A DNA stretch of 64,000 nucleotides, from IMG/VR virus record IMGVR_UViG_3300028920_000003. One strand, given 5' to 3'. The notes beneath the pieces were generated by a model. That model was not told where the DNA came from, made no database searches, and worked only from the letters and a program-made list of their open reading frames with translations. Position 1 is the first letter of the stretch. Each line of letters starts with the position of its first letter. Origin of the DNA: a virus. The translations under genes and the position numbers were made by a program. Below, piece after piece: positions 1 through 54,831 of the stretch.

Positions 1-242
1 ATGTGCTGCGCCACATCTCTCGCTTCTTCGGGCGTGAAAAAATTTACATTTTGATAGTCATCACTATCAAAGTAGTCTACTAAGATACGAACAAGATATT
101 TAAGAACCCTAAATTTCATATCATAGCATAAGAGGTCTGTTCTTCCAAGTCTCTGAGCATTAGCAAGATTATTGCCGTACTCTACGAATGCTGTTCTGAT
201 GTTATACAGATAAGCGTTTATTTCAGTAGGTGTAGCTGCCAT
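1..242 (-). CDS. hypothetical protein, N-terminal part only (gene runs off the left edge)
   Basis: Hand translation of the minus strand from ATG (complement of 240-242) stays open to position 1: MAATPTEINAYLYNIRTAFVEYGNN... Co-oriented with the gene train at 256-838. Missing from the ORF track because no stop lies in the window. Confidence 0.45.
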   Translation of the reverse strand, partial: MAATPTEINAYLYNIRTAFVEYGNNLANAQRLGRTDLLCYDMKFRVLKYLVRILVDYFDSDDYQNVNFFTPEEARDVAQH

Positions 243-47919: not shown

Positions 47920-48966
47920 ATGGCATTTACACCGTCTGAAAAAAGACTTACGAAAGAAAACATTCTTAAACACGTTGACAGCTATCAGTTATTTCAGGCA
48001 TACTGTAAGAACTTTTCAGCAATTGACAGAATGTTTAAGAGTGAATTTCGTAAAGATACCAGACCGTCGTGCCATATTATAATGTGGGAAGGAGACTTAC
48101 TTTACAAGGATTTCGGTGAACCACAAGGATATAGAGTATTTGATTATATTGCGAGAAAGTTTAATACAGATTTTCAGGGCGCACTTAGCATCATAAATCA
48201 GGACTTCGGTCTTGGTTTAGGTTCTTCTGCTTCCATCGGAGTCAATGCTTCAATGGAGACACCTGAGAAGGTACACTTCGATGTGAAGCAGTTTGAACGT
48301 CAACCTACCATTATAGAGATTGAACCTCGAAGATGGACTAAGCTTGACAGAGAGTATTGGGCGCAATATGAAATCCCTCCTCTACTACTTAAATACCATA
48401 AGATTTATTCGATAGCAAGCTACAGAATTGATAGCAGGTTTAAGGACAATGCTTTTTACCGTGTCAATCCTTATCAACTTGCTTATTCGTTTGAATACTA
48501 CTGGCACAAAGGAGTATTTAGGAGAAAGCTTTACTTTCCTCAGACAAAAGGAAGATATCGCTTTATAACCAATGTCAATAACACCATCGTACAAGGATGG
48601 ACTCTACTTCCTAAGAACAAACAGGATATTCTGTTCATAACCAAGTCTTATAAGGACATTTTGACCTTTAACATGCTTGGTTATTGGGCTATAGCTCCAA
48701 ACAATGAGCATTCGTTTATTCCGGAACAGGTAATGGAAAAGCTGAAAAAAAGATTCAGTAACATTTATGTCTGGTTTGATAACGATGAAGGTGGAATAGA
48801 TGGCGCAAAAGGTTTTGCAGAGAAGTTCAATTTACCATTTACCCACAATCCTGTTGGTGAACCGAAAGACCCTTCTGATTTTGTAAAAGAGTACAGCTCA
48901 AAAGAGTTTGATAAACTTGTAACACAGTTCCTTAAGAATGAAGGACATACAAATTACTGTTCCTAA
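47920..48966 (+). CDS. DNA primase (Toprim domain)
   Basis: 348 aa. VWFDNDEGGIDGA matches the Toprim DxD acidic cluster. The upstream ITKSYKD occupies the position of the Toprim Glu motif. Confidence 0.55.
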   Translation: MAFTPSEKRLTKENILKHVDSYQLFQAYCKNFSAIDRMFKSEFRKDTRPSCHIIMWEGDLLYKDFGEPQGYRVFDYIARKFNTDFQGALSIINQDFGLGLGSSASIGVNASMETPEKVHFDVKQFERQPTIIEIEPRRWTKLDREYWAQYEIPPLLLKYHKIYSIASYRIDSRFKDNAFYRVNPYQLAYSFEYYWHKGVFRRKLYFPQTKGRYRFITNVNNTIVQGWTLLPKNKQDILFITKSYKDILTFNMLGYWAIAPNNEHSFIPEQVMEKLKKRFSNIYVWFDNDEGGIDGAKGFAEKFNLPFTHNPVGEPKDPSDFVKEYSSKEFDKLVTQFLKNEGHTNYCS

Positions 48967-49438
48967 CTTTGAGTACAGGTATGTCATAGCGAAGAAGTCA
49001 AGGAAATCCGGAAGGATGAGATACTGGACCATCAATGGTCAAGGATTGTACAATGCTACAATGCATTACAGGTTAAGATCAAAAATTACTGAGTACTATC
49101 ACAGATATTTATCTAAGTACATCAAACAGCAGATTACTGACAAGCAAATCAAAGAGCTGAACAATCACATTTTTGTTGGCTCCTCCCACAAGTTATCCGT
49201 TTCATTAGATATTTACGAAGTACGTAGAGGCAAAATGCCTGACGTGAGTAATCTATGGCTATGGACGAAATGGTTTGAGGATGCTTTACAAGAGTCTAAT
49301 ATCATTCCGGACGACAATCCGGATTATGTACAGGAAAGCGGACGAACTCGTTATCACTTCATTGATAACAAGGAGGATCGTAAACTCGTTTTCAACTTGA
49401 AGTTAATAGATGTTCAAAACAAAAACATTCAATCATGA
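48938..49438 (+). CDS. rusA: RusA-like Holliday junction resolvase
   Basis: 166 aa. PDVSNLWLWTKWFEDALQESNIIPDDNPDYV parallels E. coli RusA [26 protein letters not shown] (D..N....DAL......DD..V). Confidence 0.55.
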   Translation: MKDIQITVPNFEYRYVIAKKSRKSGRMRYWTINGQGLYNATMHYRLRSKITEYYHRYLSKYIKQQITDKQIKELNNHIFVGSSHKLSVSLDIYEVRRGKMPDVSNLWLWTKWFEDALQESNIIPDDNPDYVQESGRTRYHFIDNKEDRKLVFNLKLIDVQNKNIQS

Positions 49439-50154
49439 GAGAAGTCGTAATAAAACTAACCTCGCAGAAGGATTTGATCAAGCATCAGTCCGATGCAAGA
49501 ACCTTTGGTGAACTCAAAAAAGAGATGCGCCAAGTCAAATGGTCCGGAATGAGGGTGGTGGAACGATCCACTAAAGCAACCCTTCAGATGGACGATGCAG
49601 TCCTTCCGCAAGGAGACTTTGTTCTGTTTCTTGTCCCTGAAAAGGTCAAGAGTGGACGTAAAACCGATGGTGGTGTCGAGAAGCTGGACGACATCAATGC
49701 AGCCAACTACAATGAACTGAGGAGTCACATGAGCTGGCTGAACAGGAACAAAGGTTGCAGCCTGAATATGCAGGGTGGTACTGAAGACCTTCGGAGAAGG
49801 TTGAAGGACTACTATCGTAGGCAGAAAAGCAAGCCTGCTACAAAAGCTGCTCCCAAACCAGCAGCCAAGAAAGCTGCTCCTGCAAAGAAAGCTGCTGTTC
49901 CTGAGAAAAAGAAGAAGAAAGGTCTCTTCGGAAAGAAGAAGGCTGATCCGAAACCTGTTGATCCTATCGAAATTATCGAAGGTGCAAGGGAGAGAATCAA
50001 CAAGGCTGTTGATGAAATCGTCCTGAATGCAATCAGCTCAGGTCAAGGTGTTCCGTCAATTCTGGAATACACTGCCGAAGAACTTGAGAAAGAGGCAAAG
50101 GAAATCCATCGGAAGCTTCGGACCAGCAGGAGTCAGGCAACGTATATCGACTGA
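49435..50154 (+). CDS. protein with N-terminal ubiquitin-like (beta-grasp-pattern) domain and Lys/Ala/Pro-rich histone-H1-like region
   Basis: 239 aa. Residues 1-70 show the hydrophobic pattern beta-beta-alpha-beta...beta (EVVIKLT / LIKHQS / TFGELKKEMRQ / MRVVER / DFVLFLVP). Gly-Gly sits at residues 79-80. KPATKAAPKPAAKKAAPAKKAAVPEKKKKKG follows. The fold assignment is inference only. Confidence 0.35.
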   Translation: MREVVIKLTSQKDLIKHQSDARTFGELKKEMRQVKWSGMRVVERSTKATLQMDDAVLPQGDFVLFLVPEKVKSGRKTDGGVEKLDDINAANYNELRSHMSWLNRNKGCSLNMQGGTEDLRRRLKDYYRRQKSKPATKAAPKPAAKKAAPAKKAAVPEKKKKKGLFGKKKADPKPVDPIEIIEGARERINKAVDEIVLNAISSGQGVPSILEYTAEELEKEAKEIHRKLRTSRSQATYID

Positions 50155-50178
50155 TACAATTTCTGTTCTAAATGTGGG

Positions 50179-50218
50179 AAGAAGGTGTAGAAGAGAAATC
50201 TTTTACACCTTCTTTTTT
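50179..50218 (+). terminator. rho-independent terminator
   Basis: GAAGGTGTA-14 nt-TACACCTTC followed by TTTTTT. It lies inside the N-terminal extension of the ORF-track call 50172-52235. Confidence 0.75.
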
Positions 50219-50231
50219 AAAATTGATAAAT

Positions 50232-52235
50232 ATGGAAGAGACTGAAAGAGAAGAATTCATGCGTCAGACTTCGGAGTCTATCAATGAGGCAGAAGCAGAA
50301 GCAGAAGCAGATGAAACCCAAAATACTTATGAGCCTCTTACTGTAGAAGCTCTGAGAGAAATCGTTAATGATTTAAGAAGTAATAATCCAACTCCAAATG
50401 ACGTTGTGACACATTATGAAACCACAGGAAACTTGGTTGTCGATACTGATAGTACAACAGGTATAACATACACGACAAGCAATAATTCCACAACCGGAAC
50501 AACGTATGTTTCTGTTCCTCCTACCACTGATCAAGTTACAGTGAATGTTGAGGGAACTCAAGTTCCACCAGCAGAACCTATACCTATTCCTGAAGAAAGA
50601 CGTAAGAAGATCAGAGAAGACAGGCTTAGAATGAAGTTGCATTTACAGAATGAGAGTCTTGAGTATAAGAGAAGCGTTTTTGCTAAAGAAATGGTCATTA
50701 CCAAAAATGATCTGATCATTTTAGCCGATCCCAATGCAGGTGAACACTGTTATAATTTCTTCCATTTTGATGTAGAAGGTGAGCATAAAGTAAAAGACTG
50801 TTTCTTACGATATCATAGTTATACTAGGCGAAGGAGAAGCGGAGACGAAAGTGTCTTTGTAGAAAATGCATTTGTTTTTGATAAAAACATGAAACGTCTT
50901 GTAGTTAACAGAGATGGGATAAGGAACAAAATATCAGGACAAGAGAAGATCAGGACTCGTAGAGATATGACAAGAATCTGGAATTATCAGATCAGTTATG
51001 CGTACAAGGAAAGAAAAAGAGATGTTGACTCAGACAGTTTTATCATAATTGATAAAGAAGAATTCATAAATTCCAGAGGTAGAAAATGGAAGCTTAAACG
51101 AAGGGAAAACTTAAGCTATTCTAATATCAAACTTGTCAGGCAGAAGTTCATCGAAAGGTTTATTGAGGTAGAACAGTTTGTGAAGAGACTTAATGAAATT
51201 GTCTCTAAAGCACTTCCTCCTGATGAGTTTGATATTTTCTATGTCTTTGGAAGGCCGAGTAACGATATTTTCAGCAGACTTACTAGTACCTATTGTTTGT
51301 TAATGAAATTCTCTAATGTCACTATCACAAATTCTATTGAAATGAAACATGAGATAGAAGAATTGATGGTAACTACTCAGGGTAATCATTATCAGGGAAT
51401 GGTACATAAAATGATTGGAGGTCTCAGTGGAATGAGAATGGCTTTTACTCCTGAAGATGCTCGTGCAAACTATCGACACTCTCATTTAACAAGCGGTCTT
51501 TCTAACTTCACAAGCTTCTGTACAGGAGGTGTGTCGTATAGTAGTATGGACAGAGAAGAACTAAATGAATTTGAAGTTCATGAGATAATCTTCAGAATCT
51601 ACAATTTTATACAATGGGAATCACTGGAAGGTGGTCCTCATTATAAAATGGAGAATATCAAAAATTTCGGAAGTCGTGTTACAATTGAGAAGAATATTAT
51701 AGGAAAAGATAGATATGTACCAGAAGAATATCTCACAGAATTGATTGGACATATCAACGCTACTCCCTTAAAATTCGCCTATTTTTCTGAATGCTTTTCT
51801 CTTACTAATCAAGGTGGAGTATTAAGGTTTGTTGTTGACTATGATAAGTTCTACGATAAATTCATAGAGCTTTTTGACAACAATACTATAAGAGATATAG
51901 GAAGAAGATACAGTTTGCCTTTGTACACTCGTAAGATGGAACTGAAAGAGTTTTATTCAGTCGGAAGTGAAACAGAACTCATACCTAGTTTAATTCTTGC
52001 AGATGCACAGGAGAAGCTAAAAAATCTTGTTCCTGTCTATTTGAACGGTAAATACGTCCGTCCTAGACTGACTAATTTCAATCCGACTTCTGCAATAGAA
52101 GGTATGAGATTTTGTCCTGAACCGAATATCATGAGAGAGATAGCACAGTACATATTATTCAAATTAACAGATAAACTTGAAGAACATGGGAACACCAGCG
52201 AAAGTAGAGAAGAGAGCCGAGTATCCGCTATATGA
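50232..52235 (+). CDS. large hypothetical protein, first gene of the JAB/E1 cassette
   Basis: Start moved to ATG 50232 (MEETEREEF...), downstream of the terminator. 667 aa with an acidic and Thr-rich N-terminus. No motif recognised. Confidence 0.5.
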   Translation: MEETEREEFMRQTSESINEAEAEAEADETQNTYEPLTVEALREIVNDLRSNNPTPNDVVTHYETTGNLVVDTDSTTGITYTTSNNSTTGTTYVSVPPTTDQVTVNVEGTQVPPAEPIPIPEERRKKIREDRLRMKLHLQNESLEYKRSVFAKEMVITKNDLIILADPNAGEHCYNFFHFDVEGEHKVKDCFLRYHSYTRRRRSGDESVFVENAFVFDKNMKRLVVNRDGIRNKISGQEKIRTRRDMTRIWNYQISYAYKERKRDVDSDSFIIIDKEEFINSRGRKWKLKRRENLSYSNIKLVRQKFIERFIEVEQFVKRLNEIVSKALPPDEFDIFYVFGRPSNDIFSRLTSTYCLLMKFSNVTITNSIEMKHEIEELMVTTQGNHYQGMVHKMIGGLSGMRMAFTPEDARANYRHSHLTSGLSNFTSFCTGGVSYSSMDREELNEFEVHEIIFRIYNFIQWESLEGGPHYKMENIKNFGSRVTIEKNIIGKDRYVPEEYLTELIGHINATPLKFAYFSECFSLTNQGGVLRFVVDYDKFYDKFIELFDNNTIRDIGRRYSLPLYTRKMELKEFYSVGSETELIPSLILADAQEKLKNLVPVYLNGKYVRPRLTNFNPTSAIEGMRFCPEPNIMREIAQYILFKLTDKLEEHGNTSESREESRVSAI

Positions 52236-52236
52236 A

Positions 52237-53373
52237 ATGGAGGAGAAAGGTAGTCTGATTCTACCACCTCATATCATATCGCAGATTACATTCCTTCATG
52301 CCCGATGTGGCAACACTGAATGGTCCGGAATGCTGCTTTATGATGTATTAAAGGGTAATCCTTCCAAACCCGAAGATTTCAAATTGGAAGCAAAACACAT
52401 CTTTCTAATGGACATTGGCACAGCAGGATCAACTAGTTATGAGACTGATGGTGATATTGTCGATCTGTTTGATGAGATTCCGGAAGCTATGGAAATGAAA
52501 TTAGGTCATATTCATACGCATCACAGTGGTAAAGCATATTTCTCAGGAGTTGATATGTCAGAACTTCAGGACAATGTAGATAAACATAACTACTACCTGT
52601 CTCTGGTTGTCAGTTTCGATGGAAATTATGCTGCTAAAGTAGTTTTCTTAAGTGATATGCATATCACATCCAAGATGAATTTCATCGACGATGCTGGTCA
52701 AACCAAGCATTTCAAGAAAGCTACTATGGAAAAACACATGGTCGTGATTAACATGAAGATCATGTATTCTGAGATGGGAGGATTTTTCTCTACTCGTCTG
52801 GATACTATTGTCAAGAAAGCTGACGCTGAGAAGAAGAAAGCTCAAGCTTGGAAGTATCCGGGATATCAGGGAGGATATAACCAACATCATACCAGTTGGA
52901 ACTCAGAAAAACAGCGTCATCTTCCTGCTCATCGTCCTATCAACAGCAAAATCATTCCTGATAAGATGACAAGCTGGGAAATCGAAGGTCTGACAAAGAA
53001 CATTCTGATGTTTGATACTGATCTGAAAACAGAAAGCAATGTATATAAGATTCTTCATGATATCGCTAACCAGATGAGTGATGATGAAACTGCTTCAGAC
53101 CTGTATTATGATTATCTTCTGAATCATATCGAGAAAGTGATTGATTCCTATTTCGATCAGCAACTGGAACCTGATGAGTATATCACCGTAATAAAAGAGG
53201 TGATAATGTGTATCAAAAAGTATGAGGGACTTCCTATACTTGCTGATGTAGTCAGGAATCTTGAAGAGACTTTCGATCATTTCATACTCGGATACGACAG
53301 TTCTGATGATGATAACGATGATGAGAAGAGTATTGCAGATCAACTTGAAAAGATGGAAAGGGAAATGAGATGA
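52237..53373 (+). CDS. JAB/MPN (JAMM) metalloprotease-domain protein
   Basis: Start placed at ATG 52237, 1 nt after the upstream stop (the ORF track starts at 52177). Exact JAMM motif H-T-H-HSGKAYF-S-GV-D (HxHx7SxxD, nt 52513-52554) with an upstream Glu in NTEWSG. The C-terminal ~230 aa are unassigned. Confidence 0.75.
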   Translation: MEEKGSLILPPHIISQITFLHARCGNTEWSGMLLYDVLKGNPSKPEDFKLEAKHIFLMDIGTAGSTSYETDGDIVDLFDEIPEAMEMKLGHIHTHHSGKAYFSGVDMSELQDNVDKHNYYLSLVVSFDGNYAAKVVFLSDMHITSKMNFIDDAGQTKHFKKATMEKHMVVINMKIMYSEMGGFFSTRLDTIVKKADAEKKKAQAWKYPGYQGGYNQHHTSWNSEKQRHLPAHRPINSKIIPDKMTSWEIEGLTKNILMFDTDLKTESNVYKILHDIANQMSDDETASDLYYDYLLNHIEKVIDSYFDQQLEPDEYITVIKEVIMCIKKYEGLPILADVVRNLEETFDHFILGYDSSDDDNDDEKSIADQLEKMEREMR

Positions 53374-54059
53374 TAGATGTGAAAAAATCAAGATTCCGTG
53401 ATGCTTCATGGTTTGAGAAGATGGATAAGTTCGTCATTCCTATCATTATCGGAGGTGCAGGTGGAATTGGTAGCTGGCTGACTTTATTTCTGTCAAGAAT
53501 GCTACCACCGTCCTCATACATCATACTATATGACTTCGATAAAGTTGAAGAAGTAAATATGGCTGGACAACTTTTCAGAATCGAAGATATTGGAAAGCTC
53601 AAAGTTACTGCTATGAGAGATATAGTAAAGGACTTTGCTGGATATGAGAGAATTACTATGATGCCTGACAGGTATGACAGTGAATCTCTCAAAAGTCCTG
53701 TCATGTTTTCATGCTTTGATAATATGGAAGCAAGAAAGGTGATGTTTGAGAACTGGTTAACAGAAGCTGAGAAATATCCTGATTCTATCTTTATTGATGG
53801 TAGGTTAAATGCAGAGCAGTTTCAGGTGTTTTATATAACTCTTGAGTGGGCGAAAGCCTATCAGGATAAACACCTGTTCAGTGATTCTGAAGTAGAAGAT
53901 ACAAATTGCTCCTACAAGCAGACTACTCACTTTGCAGCAGCTATCGCAGCAAAGATGGTTCAGGGTTTTACCGGATTTCTGGATGATACCTATGAACTTC
54001 CCTTCAAGTATGAAGAGATAGGTCCGTTGTTCTTTAATGAAATTGAGACTTATGGATGA
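53370..54059 (+). CDS. E1-like adenylyltransferase (ThiF/MoeB/Uba family), minimal 229-aa form
   Basis: IIIGGAGGIGSWL (Rossmann GxGxxG), LYDFDKVEEVNMAGQ (DxDxVxxxNxxxQ) and CFDNMEARKV (DN..R). Its ATG overlaps the JAB stop (ATGA). Confidence 0.8.
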   Translation: MIDVKKSRFRDASWFEKMDKFVIPIIIGGAGGIGSWLTLFLSRMLPPSSYIILYDFDKVEEVNMAGQLFRIEDIGKLKVTAMRDIVKDFAGYERITMMPDRYDSESLKSPVMFSCFDNMEARKVMFENWLTEAEKYPDSIFIDGRLNAEQFQVFYITLEWAKAYQDKHLFSDSEVEDTNCSYKQTTHFAAAIAAKMVQGFTGFLDDTYELPFKYEEIGPLFFNEIETYG

Positions 54060-54831
54060 TACTCGATATATTTCTGAATGGTACAGTGGTAAACCTTCTG
54101 GTAATGTAAAATTTCCTCTGAAGTTTGTACCTCATGATAGCTACTATCCTCTTATAGGTATACCTGTATTATATCTAGGTGAACACAATCCTTATTTTCA
54201 TAACATACACATCAAACGAGTTGATTGTCGTGTAAATAAACTAAGGATAGATTCATCTGGAAATTCGTTTATCTATAGAAAAGGAAGATCATGGTCAGGT
54301 CCTAAGTTGCAGATATATTCAGGTTATTACAGTGTGATAGGCTCTGCTAATAACTTTGAATATATGCCTTCTGATCTTTTCGGTAAAAAGAGAACATACC
54401 GTATGAAAGGAGAAGTAGACATATTTTGTTTAGGAGTAGTCAAACTATCGAAGCTACCTAATTTCAAGGTTAATTCAAGAAAAAGTTATTACAGATATTC
54501 TAGCACACAAGTTATGGACTTGACATTAAACCTGAAAGATGTAACGATTCTTGTTAATGAAGAAAAATTACGAAAAACTCTATTTACAAAAACAGTTTAT
54601 ACACCTACGGTTAGAAGAACTATATTGGATCAGATAAAGAGAGAGAAATCCTTACAAGTGAAAGATGTCTCAGACGAATATCTAAGATCGTTTATGCAAA
54701 GTCCTAATACTGTCAGGACTAACTCGTTTGTCGAAGCTATGACAATTGATCAAAAAATAAAAGACAGTGTATTTTCTAACCTAAACAGTGAATTTGCGAA
54801 TGTTCGACAAAATGAAAACGTTGACGGATAA
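54037..54831 (+). CDS. hypothetical protein downstream of the E1-like gene
   Basis: 264 aa. The alternative ATG at 54052 overlaps the E1 stop. Contains YYP..IP......HNP...........C (residues 36-64). No confident motif. Confidence 0.5.
   Translation: MKLRLMDDTRYISEWYSGKPSGNVKFPLKFVPHDSYYPLIGIPVLYLGEHNPYFHNIHIKRVDCRVNKLRIDSSGNSFIYRKGRSWSGPKLQIYSGYYSVIGSANNFEYMPSDLFGKKRTYRMKGEVDIFCLGVVKLSKLPNFKVNSRKSYYRYSSTQVMDLTLNLKDVTILVNEEKLRKTLFTKTVYTPTVRRTILDQIKREKSLQVKDVSDEYLRSFMQSPNTVRTNSFVEAMTIDQKIKDSVFSNLNSEFANVRQNENVDG

Follow-up and report, generated by a model that had tools for sequence, protein, structure and literature searches.

A gene of a crAss-like phage encodes a genuine ubiquitin-fold protein, which is probably the precursor of a ubiquitin-like modifier (Ubl) processed at Gly74. 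Because the Ubl always lies beside a JAB metallopeptidase and an E1, it points to a ubiquitin-like tagging pathway run by the virus itself. What the data directly support is the fold, the invariance of the glycine, its place at the domain boundary, the intact JAB and E1 motifs and the strict linkage of the genes. The window (the whole stretch of DNA that was analysed, 64,000 nucleotides of IMG/VR record IMGVR_UViG_3300028920_000003) holds the gene at 49435..50154 on the plus strand, as are all coordinates below. The 239-residue open reading frame proposed there in an earlier note is real; it stands in the ORF list, 122 homologues of it were found, and its AlphaFold2 (AF2) model shows a Ubl domain followed by a variable C-terminal module. 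The start ATG overlaps the stop of a RusA-like gene upstream. Directly 3' of the gene lies a hairpin and T-run terminator (50176..50217; RNA fold -25 kcal/mol, z -4.1), and comparable hairpins are also found 3' of stand-alone Ubl genes.

Residues 1-74 (49435..49656) form a ubiquitin-like beta-grasp domain with the tail E-K-V-K-S-G74, a predicted mature modifier of 8.5 kDa. In the AF2 model, strands at residues 2-8 and 14-19, a helix at 24-30 and further strands at 39-43 and 62-68 have pLDDT values of 87-96, with a pLDDT of about 90 across residues 1-68. The earlier note had guessed a beta-grasp in the first ~70 residues and proposed structure prediction and a fold search; AF2 followed by Foldseek against the PDB and VIA-align bore this out, returning ubiquitin-fold domains exclusively (Ub, Ubl, DIX and UBX, top Z 7-9). 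The best match reaches Z 8.9 with an rmsd of 2.0 Å over 66 residues, and the matches overall lie at ~2 Å over 65-70 residues. Non-conjugated ubiquitin folds are included, the polymerising DIX and SOSEKI domains and UBX being the top structural matches. Ubiquitin itself scores Z 7.3-7.7 (8q7r_U 1..75 aligned by VIA with model residues 2..72), and MoaD and MOCS2A score Z 7.2-7.5 (5mpo_B, a MOCS2A chain, 5..88 aligned with 2..73). The tblastn matches to distant relatives end at residue 74/75. At the level of sequence families, no ubiquitin, ThiS, MoaD or BilA model matched the domain in Pfam, the PHROG-annotated set or PADLOC, and a profile of the Ubl returned coiled-coil noise only from the PDB sequences.

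Where does the modifier end? The codon of the invariant Gly74 (49654..49656), the predicted site of JAB cleavage and E1 activation, is marked by conservation, by low pLDDT and by natural ORF ends. The motif K-V-K-[SA]-G ending in G74 is present in 118/120 homologues; one of the remaining two has K-T-K-S-G, and the other, an N-terminally shorter ORF, still has K-V-K-S-G. Over all homologue sets the glycine pattern is K-x-K-[SAG]-G. G74 is invariant from the near clade out to FpV4 gp53, Bajarodcaudo, crAss001 Gp79 (whose tail reads K-I-K-S-G) and cr111_1, at 23-28% identity, and the residue after it is free to vary. Hinge residues 73-75 have an AF2 pLDDT <50 and lie at the position of the ubiquitin C-terminus; G74 is the only invariant residue among them. 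K-V-K-S-G74 mirrors the R-L-R-G-G of ubiquitin at a structurally equivalent C-terminus, the phage tail being Ser-Gly rather than Gly-Gly and 1-2 residues longer.

The earlier note had placed the processing site at a di-glycine, Gly79-Gly80 (49669..49674), with a ~9 kDa species as the product. The di-glycine is indeed present and is conserved inside the near clade, but its significance did not survive. Conservation among homologues, on which the note had let the claim stand or fall, is confined to the closest relatives: a GG within 9 residues after the conserved Gly occurs in 43/120 homologues, all of the near clade, and is missing from the other 77/120 as well as from the distant FpV4, crAss001, cr111_1 and Bajarodcaudo homologues. 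Natural ORFs end or split at Gly74 plus 1-2 residues, with the GG lying 5-6 residues beyond. On these two grounds we rejected Gly79-Gly80 as the processing site, give a cut there next to no probability, and regard the di-glycine as a clade-specific linker feature. Judged by sequence, the working end of the Ubl is Gly74, 5-6 residues upstream of the di-glycine, and taking it as the functional C-terminus also disposes of the earlier concern about the long distance between the last strand and the GG.

Nature has separated the two parts of the protein at this glycine more than once. In cr106_1, an HNH homing-endonuclease gene splits the Ubl gene right after the conserved Gly, so that a Ubl ORF ending KSG-KF-stop is followed first by the HNH ORF and after it by one that encodes the C-terminal module on its own. 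A group I intron was considered as the cause of this split and rejected (nothing in Rfam matched up to E = 1; only ~35 non-ORF bases). Stand-alone Ubl ORFs of 75-79 aa, which came from a BFVD fold search and an IMG/VR scan, lie on six more viral contigs, all distinct and as long as 95 kb; they end G-R, G-F, G-K (three) and G-LN, 1-2 residues past the Gly. Together, the cr106_1 split and the stand-alone forms imply that the Ubl domain functions without being covalently joined to the C-terminal module. None of the seven natural Ubl ORFs ends exactly at the Gly, so trimming is still needed; the JAB gene is kept in the stand-alone cassettes wherever the fetched DNA reaches that far, and an E1 is present in 5/5 records with a stand-alone Ubl. 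The fusion of Ubl and C-terminal module is retained in most lineages. A word-index search of the protein database for short stand-alone or longer fused Ubls returned contig-truncated fragments only and no longer fusions, and the small ORFs that follow stand-alone Ubl genes have no significant similarity to the fused C-terminal helices.

The cassette is located among replication genes, in an order that is identical in FpV4, Bajarodcaudo, crAss001, cr111_1, cr126_1 and metagenome contigs. Within the phage collection, 29 + 45 = 74 records contain a Ubl homologue and 79 contain the E1; 74 of the E1 records match the Ubl records in organism make-up. A JAB gene lies downstream in 63/68 related loci. 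The JAB/JAMM metallopeptidase (52237..53373), a predicted processing and deconjugating enzyme assigned by motif, Pfam and synteny, matches Pfam Prok-JAB weakly and has an intact JAMM motif, with E48, H113-x-H115 and S123-x-x-D126 invariant. The E1, a separate ORF overlapping that of JAB (53370..54059), is a minimal ThiF/MoeB-type protein of 229 aa with a single ThiF domain (Pfam ThiF, 1e-13), a weak partial match to PADLOC BilD (3.3e-4) and invariant GxGxxGS, D55, K78, D117..R122 and C180.

Between the Ubl and JAB genes lies a 687-aa frame (50232..52235), the middle gene, whose product is a candidate E2-like carrier. It belongs to a family of 918 representatives (clusters) and has an invariant core, Y-x-H-S-H … F-C-x-G … W-E-S-L-E-G-G-P, at residues of about 372-510, with a beta-meander preceding H-S-H. 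No family was assigned by sequence (Pfam on 57 members, PDB sequences). The AF2 model has a pLDDT of 91.9; Foldseek returned nothing at E up to 0.001 and the ESM Atlas nothing usable for the 687-aa protein. Weak UBC/UEV/RWD matches recur, BubB and true E2s among them, at Z 2.4-5.3, below the usual noise ceiling. The middle-gene family may represent a class of E2-like carrier not recognised so far. In one clade (L050-L057) another gene takes the middle position. Two further leads in this region of the analysis were dropped: an E2-like string in a 264-aa protein is not conserved in its homologues, and the E1 neighbourhood of a Xanthomonas jumbo phage, considered as a Rosetta-stone fusion, contains an 892-aa neighbour without similarity to JAB or the middle protein.

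How might these proteins work together? We think it reasonably likely that the Ubl modifier is cut from its precursor at Gly74 by JAB, activated by the E1 and passed through the middle protein to lysines. Residues 1-74 would be the modifier, its flexible tail ending K-V-K-S-Gly74, and residues 75-239 the variable module. JAB, two genes downstream, would cut after Gly74; the E1 would adenylate the exposed glycine, possibly forming a thioester on the invariant Cys180; and the modifier would then be handed to the invariant Cys (or Ser/His) of the middle protein and from there to target lysines. JAB could also reverse the conjugation. We infer cleavage, activation and conjugation, as well as the existence of targets. 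That a neighbouring JAB trims a Ubl precursor had been suggested before, and this core idea is in keeping with the predicted fold, conservation, synteny and the split and stand-alone forms; what changes is the site, Gly74 in place of Gly79-Gly80.

Could the beta-grasp remain in place as a permanent interaction or polymerising domain of a DNA-binding replication accessory protein, with JAB and E1 acting elsewhere? DIX, SOSEKI and UBX at the top of the fold matches would suit such an uncleaved adaptor, as would the persistence of the fusion in most lineages and the finding of no Ubl fused to other partners. However, in the 75-79 aa forms and in cr106_1 the two parts are separate, a glycine at the ubiquitin-equivalent C-terminus is the one residue fixed in the hinge, and the cassette offers E1 and JAB no second visible candidate for a Ubl; we consider such an adaptor quite unlikely. 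A role as sulfur carrier we regard as unlikely. Here JAB would trim the protein, the E1 would make a thiocarboxylate of Gly74, and the sulfur would go to nucleic-acid or cofactor modification, as for CysO, QbsE, ThiS, MoaD and TtuB. JAB proteins take short extensions off CysO and QbsE, which the 1-2 residue caps resemble; the E1 has the small ThiF/MoeB size and a single conserved Cys, and the fold search also matched MoaD and MOCS2A. Yet the ubiquitin-type domains score at least as high as MoaD, Pfam and PHROGs revealed no rhodanese, cysteine desulfurase, sulfurtransferase or thiolation enzyme among the cassette proteins, and the conserved middle gene, with its invariant Cys/Ser/His loop and weakly E2/RWD-like fold, speaks against a pathway of this kind.

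It is very unlikely that the Ubl is a pro-domain only, cleaved in order to release or activate the C-terminal DNA-binding module and itself never conjugated once free. There is precedent in human and yeast SDE2, Ubl-GG-[SDE2/SAP] precursors that are cut to release a replication/splicing factor (PMC5131917, PMC6486553, PMC9399289), and the module here is SAP-like, basic and encoded among replication genes. But an E1 has no role in such a scheme, and phages with a stand-alone Ubl and no fused module keep the middle gene, JAB and E1. Since they keep the full enzyme set, the Ubl itself is the conserved working part.

Among described systems, the type I Bub pathway (BubAB/BubCD/BubE; Ye et al. 2024) comes close. 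There the Ubl is translated at the N-terminus of a fusion protein, its C-terminus is exposed when a JAB/JAMM peptidase cuts directly behind a conserved glycine, the E1 is small with a single adenylation domain, and the BubB E2 uses a Ser/His site (PMC11601596). The phage system shares the N-terminal Ubl, the JAB, whose cut is predicted, and the small E1, and the middle protein carries, alongside its Cys, an invariant H-S-H that recalls the BubB site. Unlike BubAB, the phage fusion partner is all-helical, basic and SAP-like, without the conserved Cys/Ser-His site typical of an E2. Unlike BubCD and BubE, JAB and E1 have a gene each, the cassette gave no match to a DUF6527 protease, and the E1 has an invariant Cys. 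Moreover, Bub is a bacterial defence locus, whereas the phage genes lie in the replication module of lytic crAss-like phages. The Bil components, listed as BilA (Ubl), BilB (E2), BilC (JAB) and BilD (E1) (PMC11601596), follow the same order as the four phage components, Ubl, candidate E2, JAB and E1, and the stand-alone phage Ubls with their short C-terminal cap are Bil-like as well. However, BilD is a large IAD-AAD-CYS E1, in contrast to the 229-aa phage protein, PADLOC gave no BilA or BilB sequence match, and the phage genes are encoded by the virus, not the host.

The phage precursor also resembles SDE2 and the ubiquitin-ribosomal-protein fusions in placing an N-terminal ubiquitin fold before a nucleic-acid-binding-type part, with cleavage in the phage case predicted. 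The SDE2 Ubl is cleaved at its C-terminal glycine and the freed SAP-domain protein acts at replication forks (PMC5131917, PMC9399289). In contrast to the phage case, SDE2 and the ribosomal fusions are cut by cysteine DUBs and re-use of the SDE2 Ubl is not known, whereas the phage gene is accompanied by a dedicated E1 and JAB and its Ubl also exists alone. TAPI of phages lambda and T1 is likewise a phage-encoded Ubl; a further domain comes after its conserved C-terminal glycine, and it adjoins TAPK, a JAB predicted to release the Ubl (Iyer et al. 2006, PMC1779556). Unlike the cassette, TAPI belongs to the tail module and has neither an E1 nor an E2-like partner; no sequence relationship was detected. 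The small beta-grasp, ThiF-size E1 and predicted JAB trimming of residues after a terminal Gly are shared with CysO/QbsE and the archaeal SAMP/UbaA/JAMM system, in which SAMPs conjugate without a canonical E2. Unlike these, the phage cassette is without sulfur-transfer enzymes, and its Ubl has a Ser-Gly tail and an extension of up to 165 residues.

Taken at its widest, the proposal is that crAss-like phages, among them cultured crAss001 and the FpV4 group of Flavobacterium, operate a complete Ubl conjugation pathway of their own during DNA replication, with a Ubl, a new E2-like family, JAB and a minimal E1, the modifier in many lineages being fused to a DNA-binding module and cut at an invariant Ser-Gly. 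We put this at slightly less than an even chance. If true, viruses of bacteria would have their own counterpart to the Bil/Bub/CBASS machinery of the host, perhaps tagging replisome or host defence proteins, and the pathway would be a new, phage-encoded variant of Bil/Bub-type pathways. Bacterial ubiquitin-like conjugation has so far been described as anti-phage host defence (Bil, Bub, CBASS Cap2/Cap3), and tail assembly had been the only setting known for phage Ubl domains, with no E1 beside them. In the present case a large clade conserves the full set of Ubl, carrier, JAB and E1 within its replication module. The literature searched contained no paper describing a Ubl-middle gene-JAB-E1 cassette. 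Among the members of the clade are gut phages already in culture (crAss001, DAC15) and phages of fish pathogens (FpV4), so that available strains and recombinant proteins allow an immediate test of the hypothesis, and the Gly74 site and the predicted tryptic Ser-Gly remnant (+144.05 Da) offer handles for mass spectrometry.

The C-terminal module (residues 75-239) is, judging by its model, likely to be a lineage-variable, basic, helical part that binds nucleic acid or a partner. The helical character read earlier from the sequence is present in the AF2 model. Residues 92-132 (49708..49830) form a helix-loop-helix (helices 92-106 and 116-132, pLDDT about 90) with Y92, N93, R96, S97, L102 and N103 conserved. 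Its SAP/HeH-like appearance is a lead: SAP-domain families make up 4/10 structural neighbours in the ESM Atlas, the homologues do not match Pfam SAP (PF02037), and a single member matches SAP_new25 (0.0085). The adjoining linker, residues 133-176 (44 residues; 49831..49962), is disordered and basic (77% K/A/P, pI 10.5, pLDDT about 50). The earlier note had called it a histone-H1-like tail; the Lys/Ala/Pro stretch is real, but it is a lineage-specific low-complexity insert and not a defining part of the protein, occurring in the near clade at varying length and missing from homologues of 185-210 aa. The resemblance is one of composition, the 239-aa protein having no H1 winged-helix globular domain (GH1/GH5); one homologue has a low-complexity match to HC2, and one locus (L043) carries a similar tail immediately after the Gly. 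Two C-terminal helices in the AF2 model, residues 177-201 and 214-232 (49963..50130), contain conserved A191, D193, L217, E220 and L228, and the terminal E-L-x-K-E-A-K-E-I motif recurs in other architectures, with a similar terminal helix in L043 and L029.

The window is the replication arm of a crAss-like phage. On its plus strand, a primase gene (47920-48966) precedes a RusA-like gene (48938-49438), which lies directly upstream of the ORF, present in the sequence, for a 239-aa predicted ubiquitin-like (Ubl) precursor (49435-50154). A strong hairpin and T-run terminator (50176-50217) separates the Ubl gene from the gene after it, here called the middle gene; the 687-aa middle frame therefore probably begins at the ATG at 50232, giving 667 aa. 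Past the terminator, the plus strand encodes this 667/687-aa protein, then a JAB-like protein and a ThiF-type E1, and after these a 264-aa protein and an exonuclease VIII-type nuclease. Gene order is identical in Flavobacterium phage FpV4 (gp55-gp47), Bajarodcaudo virus 1, Bacteroides phage crAss001 (Gp80-Gp70), cr111_1, cr126_1 and long metagenome contigs. Within the phage collection, 29 Flavobacterium-phage records have a Ubl homologue, as do 45 Steigviridae and related records. E1 was found in 79 records: the organism make-up of 74 matches that of the Ubl records, and the other five are from Xanthomonas and Erwinia phages, at ~28% identity.

An AlphaFold2 model of the 239-aa protein, built from 34 homologues, contains a confident beta-beta-alpha-beta-beta domain at residues 1-68 (pLDDT 87-96), and pLDDT drops below 50 precisely at residues 73-75. 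A Foldseek search of the PDB and an exhaustive one with VIA-align returned ubiquitin-fold domains as the sole matches to residues 1-70: DIX (Z 8.9), the TINCR Ubl (8.6), UBX (8.4), FAT10 (7.8), ubiquitin (7.3-7.7) and MoaD/MOCS2A (7.2-7.5), with an rmsd of ~2 Å across 65-70 residues. Because the model is confident and its matches are exclusively of this fold, the earlier note was correct in guessing a beta-grasp for the first ~70 residues.

Where would such a domain end? The earlier note pointed to a Gly-Gly at residues 79-80, which is present but not conserved: a Gly-Gly at most nine residues past the conserved Gly was found in only 43 of 120 homologues, all from the closest clade. The motif K-V-K-[SA]-G, by comparison, occupies the equivalent of residues 70-74 in 118 of the 120; the remaining two are one K-T-K-S-G and one N-terminally shorter ORF that has K-V-K-S-G nonetheless. 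The next position shows no constraint: R, A, G, K, M, L, T, F and others occur there. Across the far more distant FpV4 gp53, Bajarodcaudo, crAss001 Gp79 and cr111_1 proteins, at 23-28% identity, ~15 positions are invariant, G74 among them, the motif reads K-[VI]-[KR]-S-G, and no counterpart of GG79-80 was found. The tail E-K-V-K-S-G follows the same basic-aliphatic-basic-small-Gly pattern as L-R-L-R-G-G of ubiquitin. Structural alignment pairs model residue 72 with ubiquitin residue 75, and residue 73 with MOCS2A residue 88, at which the alignment to that chain ends; thus G74 lies within 1-2 residues of the canonical Ubl C-terminus, and GG79-80 lies 5-6 residues beyond it.

A fold search of viral models also picked up a 92-aa protein of cr106_1, in which the gene is in pieces. 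Its Ubl ORF terminates in K-I-K-S-G-K-F-stop, and a NUMOD4/HNH_3/NUMOD1 homing-endonuclease ORF (L010:3020-3535) starts one base past that stop, exactly at the junction of Ubl and C-terminal module, making two ORFs. Fifteen bases downstream of the endonuclease stop is a 130-aa ORF for the C-terminal module, whose start (M-E-T-K-I-M-T-R-N-E-L) aligns with A-M-S-R-A-E-A-Y after K-S-G in crAss001. No group I intron was detected at the split, where almost no non-coding sequence remains to form one. The split is recent, since the Ubls of cr106_1 and crAss001 share 82% identity.

Scanning IMG/VR gave 80 loci, and many tblastn matches ended at query residue 74 or 75. Reading the frames identified six more distinct stand-alone Ubl ORFs, 75-79 aa long and on contigs of as much as 95 kb; three different sequences end in G-K, and the others in G-R, G-F and G-L-N. 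In intermediate forms, 22-72 residues follow the conserved Gly. Downstream in these loci lies the same middle gene, then JAB where the fetched DNA extends that far, and E1 was present in five of five records checked. All seven stand-alone forms (cr106_1 and the six) end one or two residues past the Gly, none of them at it. Trimming by a peptidase would therefore still be needed, which fits the retention of JAB. Helical ORFs of 42-51 aa follow stand-alone Ubl genes (L034:2728-2883, L037:2744-2896, L040:2737-2865, L041:2777-2926 and L065:2740-2880) and are themselves followed by a hairpin terminator. The start of the L034 ORF overlaps the Ubl stop, K-K-[IL]-D-x-[YF]-F is common to four, and comparison with the fused C-terminal helices gave no significant similarity.

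The C-terminal module (residues 75-239) is variable between homologues. AlphaFold2 places confident helices at 92-106 and 116-132, disorder at 133-176 and helices at 177-201 and 214-232. Of the histone-H1-like tail proposed earlier, the basic stretch stands (residues 133-176, 77% K/A/P, pI 10.5), its likeness to histone H1 being compositional only; the stretch is missing from homologues of 185-210 aa, and in locus L043 one of this type lies immediately past the Gly. Best conserved are the helix-loop-helix at 92-132 and the terminal helix. Of ten structural neighbours of the helix-loop-helix in the Atlas, four are SAP-domain families, but Pfam gave no SAP hit for it. In the cr126_1 homologue (L011:3323-4249, 308 aa), an inserted C-terminal domain of ribosomal protein L7/L12 (Pfam, 5e-12) separates the SAP-like helices from the terminal ones. 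Steigviridae (K-S-G-A-M-S-R) and L043 (K-S-G-M-P) have a Met just past the region of the invariant Gly (L003:3304-3981, L004, L002, L043), at which translation of the module on its own might start.

The JAMM motif, H-x-H-x7-S-x2-D, is complete in the JAB family (52237-53373 in the window), which retains E48, H113-x-H115, S123 and D126. E1 (53370-54059) retains the GxGxxGS loop, D55, K78, D117…R122 and an invariant Cys180, roughly where ThiF and MoeB have their conserved Cys. The crAss001 E1 (Gp76, L003:6563-7714) has an N-terminal extension of ~150 residues that is not in the window's 229-aa E1, and the E1 homologue of one IMG/VR record (L096, G005:C1:10016-10708) has an in-frame TGA.

The middle gene (50232-52235) adjoins Ubl in 62 of 68 loci, and its family comprises 918 representative clusters (E up to 1e-3) with the invariant core Y-x-H-S-H … F-C-x-G … W-E-S-L-E-G-G-P. 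Its very confident model (pLDDT 91.9) runs from a four-stranded meander through the H-S-H loop and the Cys to a long helix, as the elements are arranged in UBC-fold E2 enzymes. The structural matches, none above Z 5.3, are weak, yet repeatedly of the UBC/UEV/RWD superfold: Spc24/25, Ctf19/Mcm21, BRE, FANCL, Ltn1, BubB, UBE2S, Serratia CBASS E2, CDC34, Ubc9, Atg3 and Vps23. Foldseek alone returned nothing, and no sequence-level support for E2 identity was found. We regard the possible E2-like nature of the middle protein as no more than a lead. The clade with a K-Q-K-G-G tail has a different middle gene; in these loci (L050-L057), where the di-glycine is a true tail, it encodes 443 aa without the H-S-H…C motif, and JAB is retained in five of six. 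In the 264-aa protein (54037-54831, 3' of E1), an E2-like YP…HNP…C string was rejected as unconserved among homologues. The protein is poorly conserved, with two invariant columns across five homologues, and residues 123-223 have a weak PADLOC AbiEii match (2.2e-4).

We consider it fairly likely that JAB cuts the precursor after Gly74 and that E1 adenylates the 8.5-kDa Ubl, which would be handed to targets, probably through the middle protein. The cut would release an 18.5-kDa basic module, made separately or absent in other phages. The terminator right behind the Ubl gene sets it apart from the enzyme genes and would let the Ubl substrate be produced in excess. Might the precursor instead act uncleaved as an adaptor, its Ubl serve as a sulfur carrier, or the Ubl be purely a pro-domain like that of SDE2, a Ubl-GG-SAP replication factor (PMC5131917, PMC6486553, PMC9399289)? 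Each of these is weakened, either because the full enzyme set persists alongside stand-alone Ubl forms or because sulfur-transfer genes are missing.

Besides SDE2, the closest described systems to this predicted conjugation cassette are Type I Bub, in which JAB cuts a Ubl-E2 fusion after a conserved Gly (PMC11601596), the four-component Bil (Ubl, E2, JAB, E1) and lambda TAPI/TAPK (PMC1779556). The phage cassette differs from Bub and Bil in their defining features (fusion to E2, JAB-E1 fusion, DUF6527, BilD-type E1), and is therefore a new, virus-encoded variant belonging to neither. Our literature search found no paper on it. New here are the support for the Ubl fold, the move of the predicted processing site to Gly74, the forms that are naturally split or stand alone, and a weak lead that the middle gene is E2/RWD-like. 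Two database homologues (P0051, P0059) are labelled by NCBI as Candidatus Heimdallarchaeaceae MAG proteins; their source is probably phage contigs binned into archaeal MAGs.
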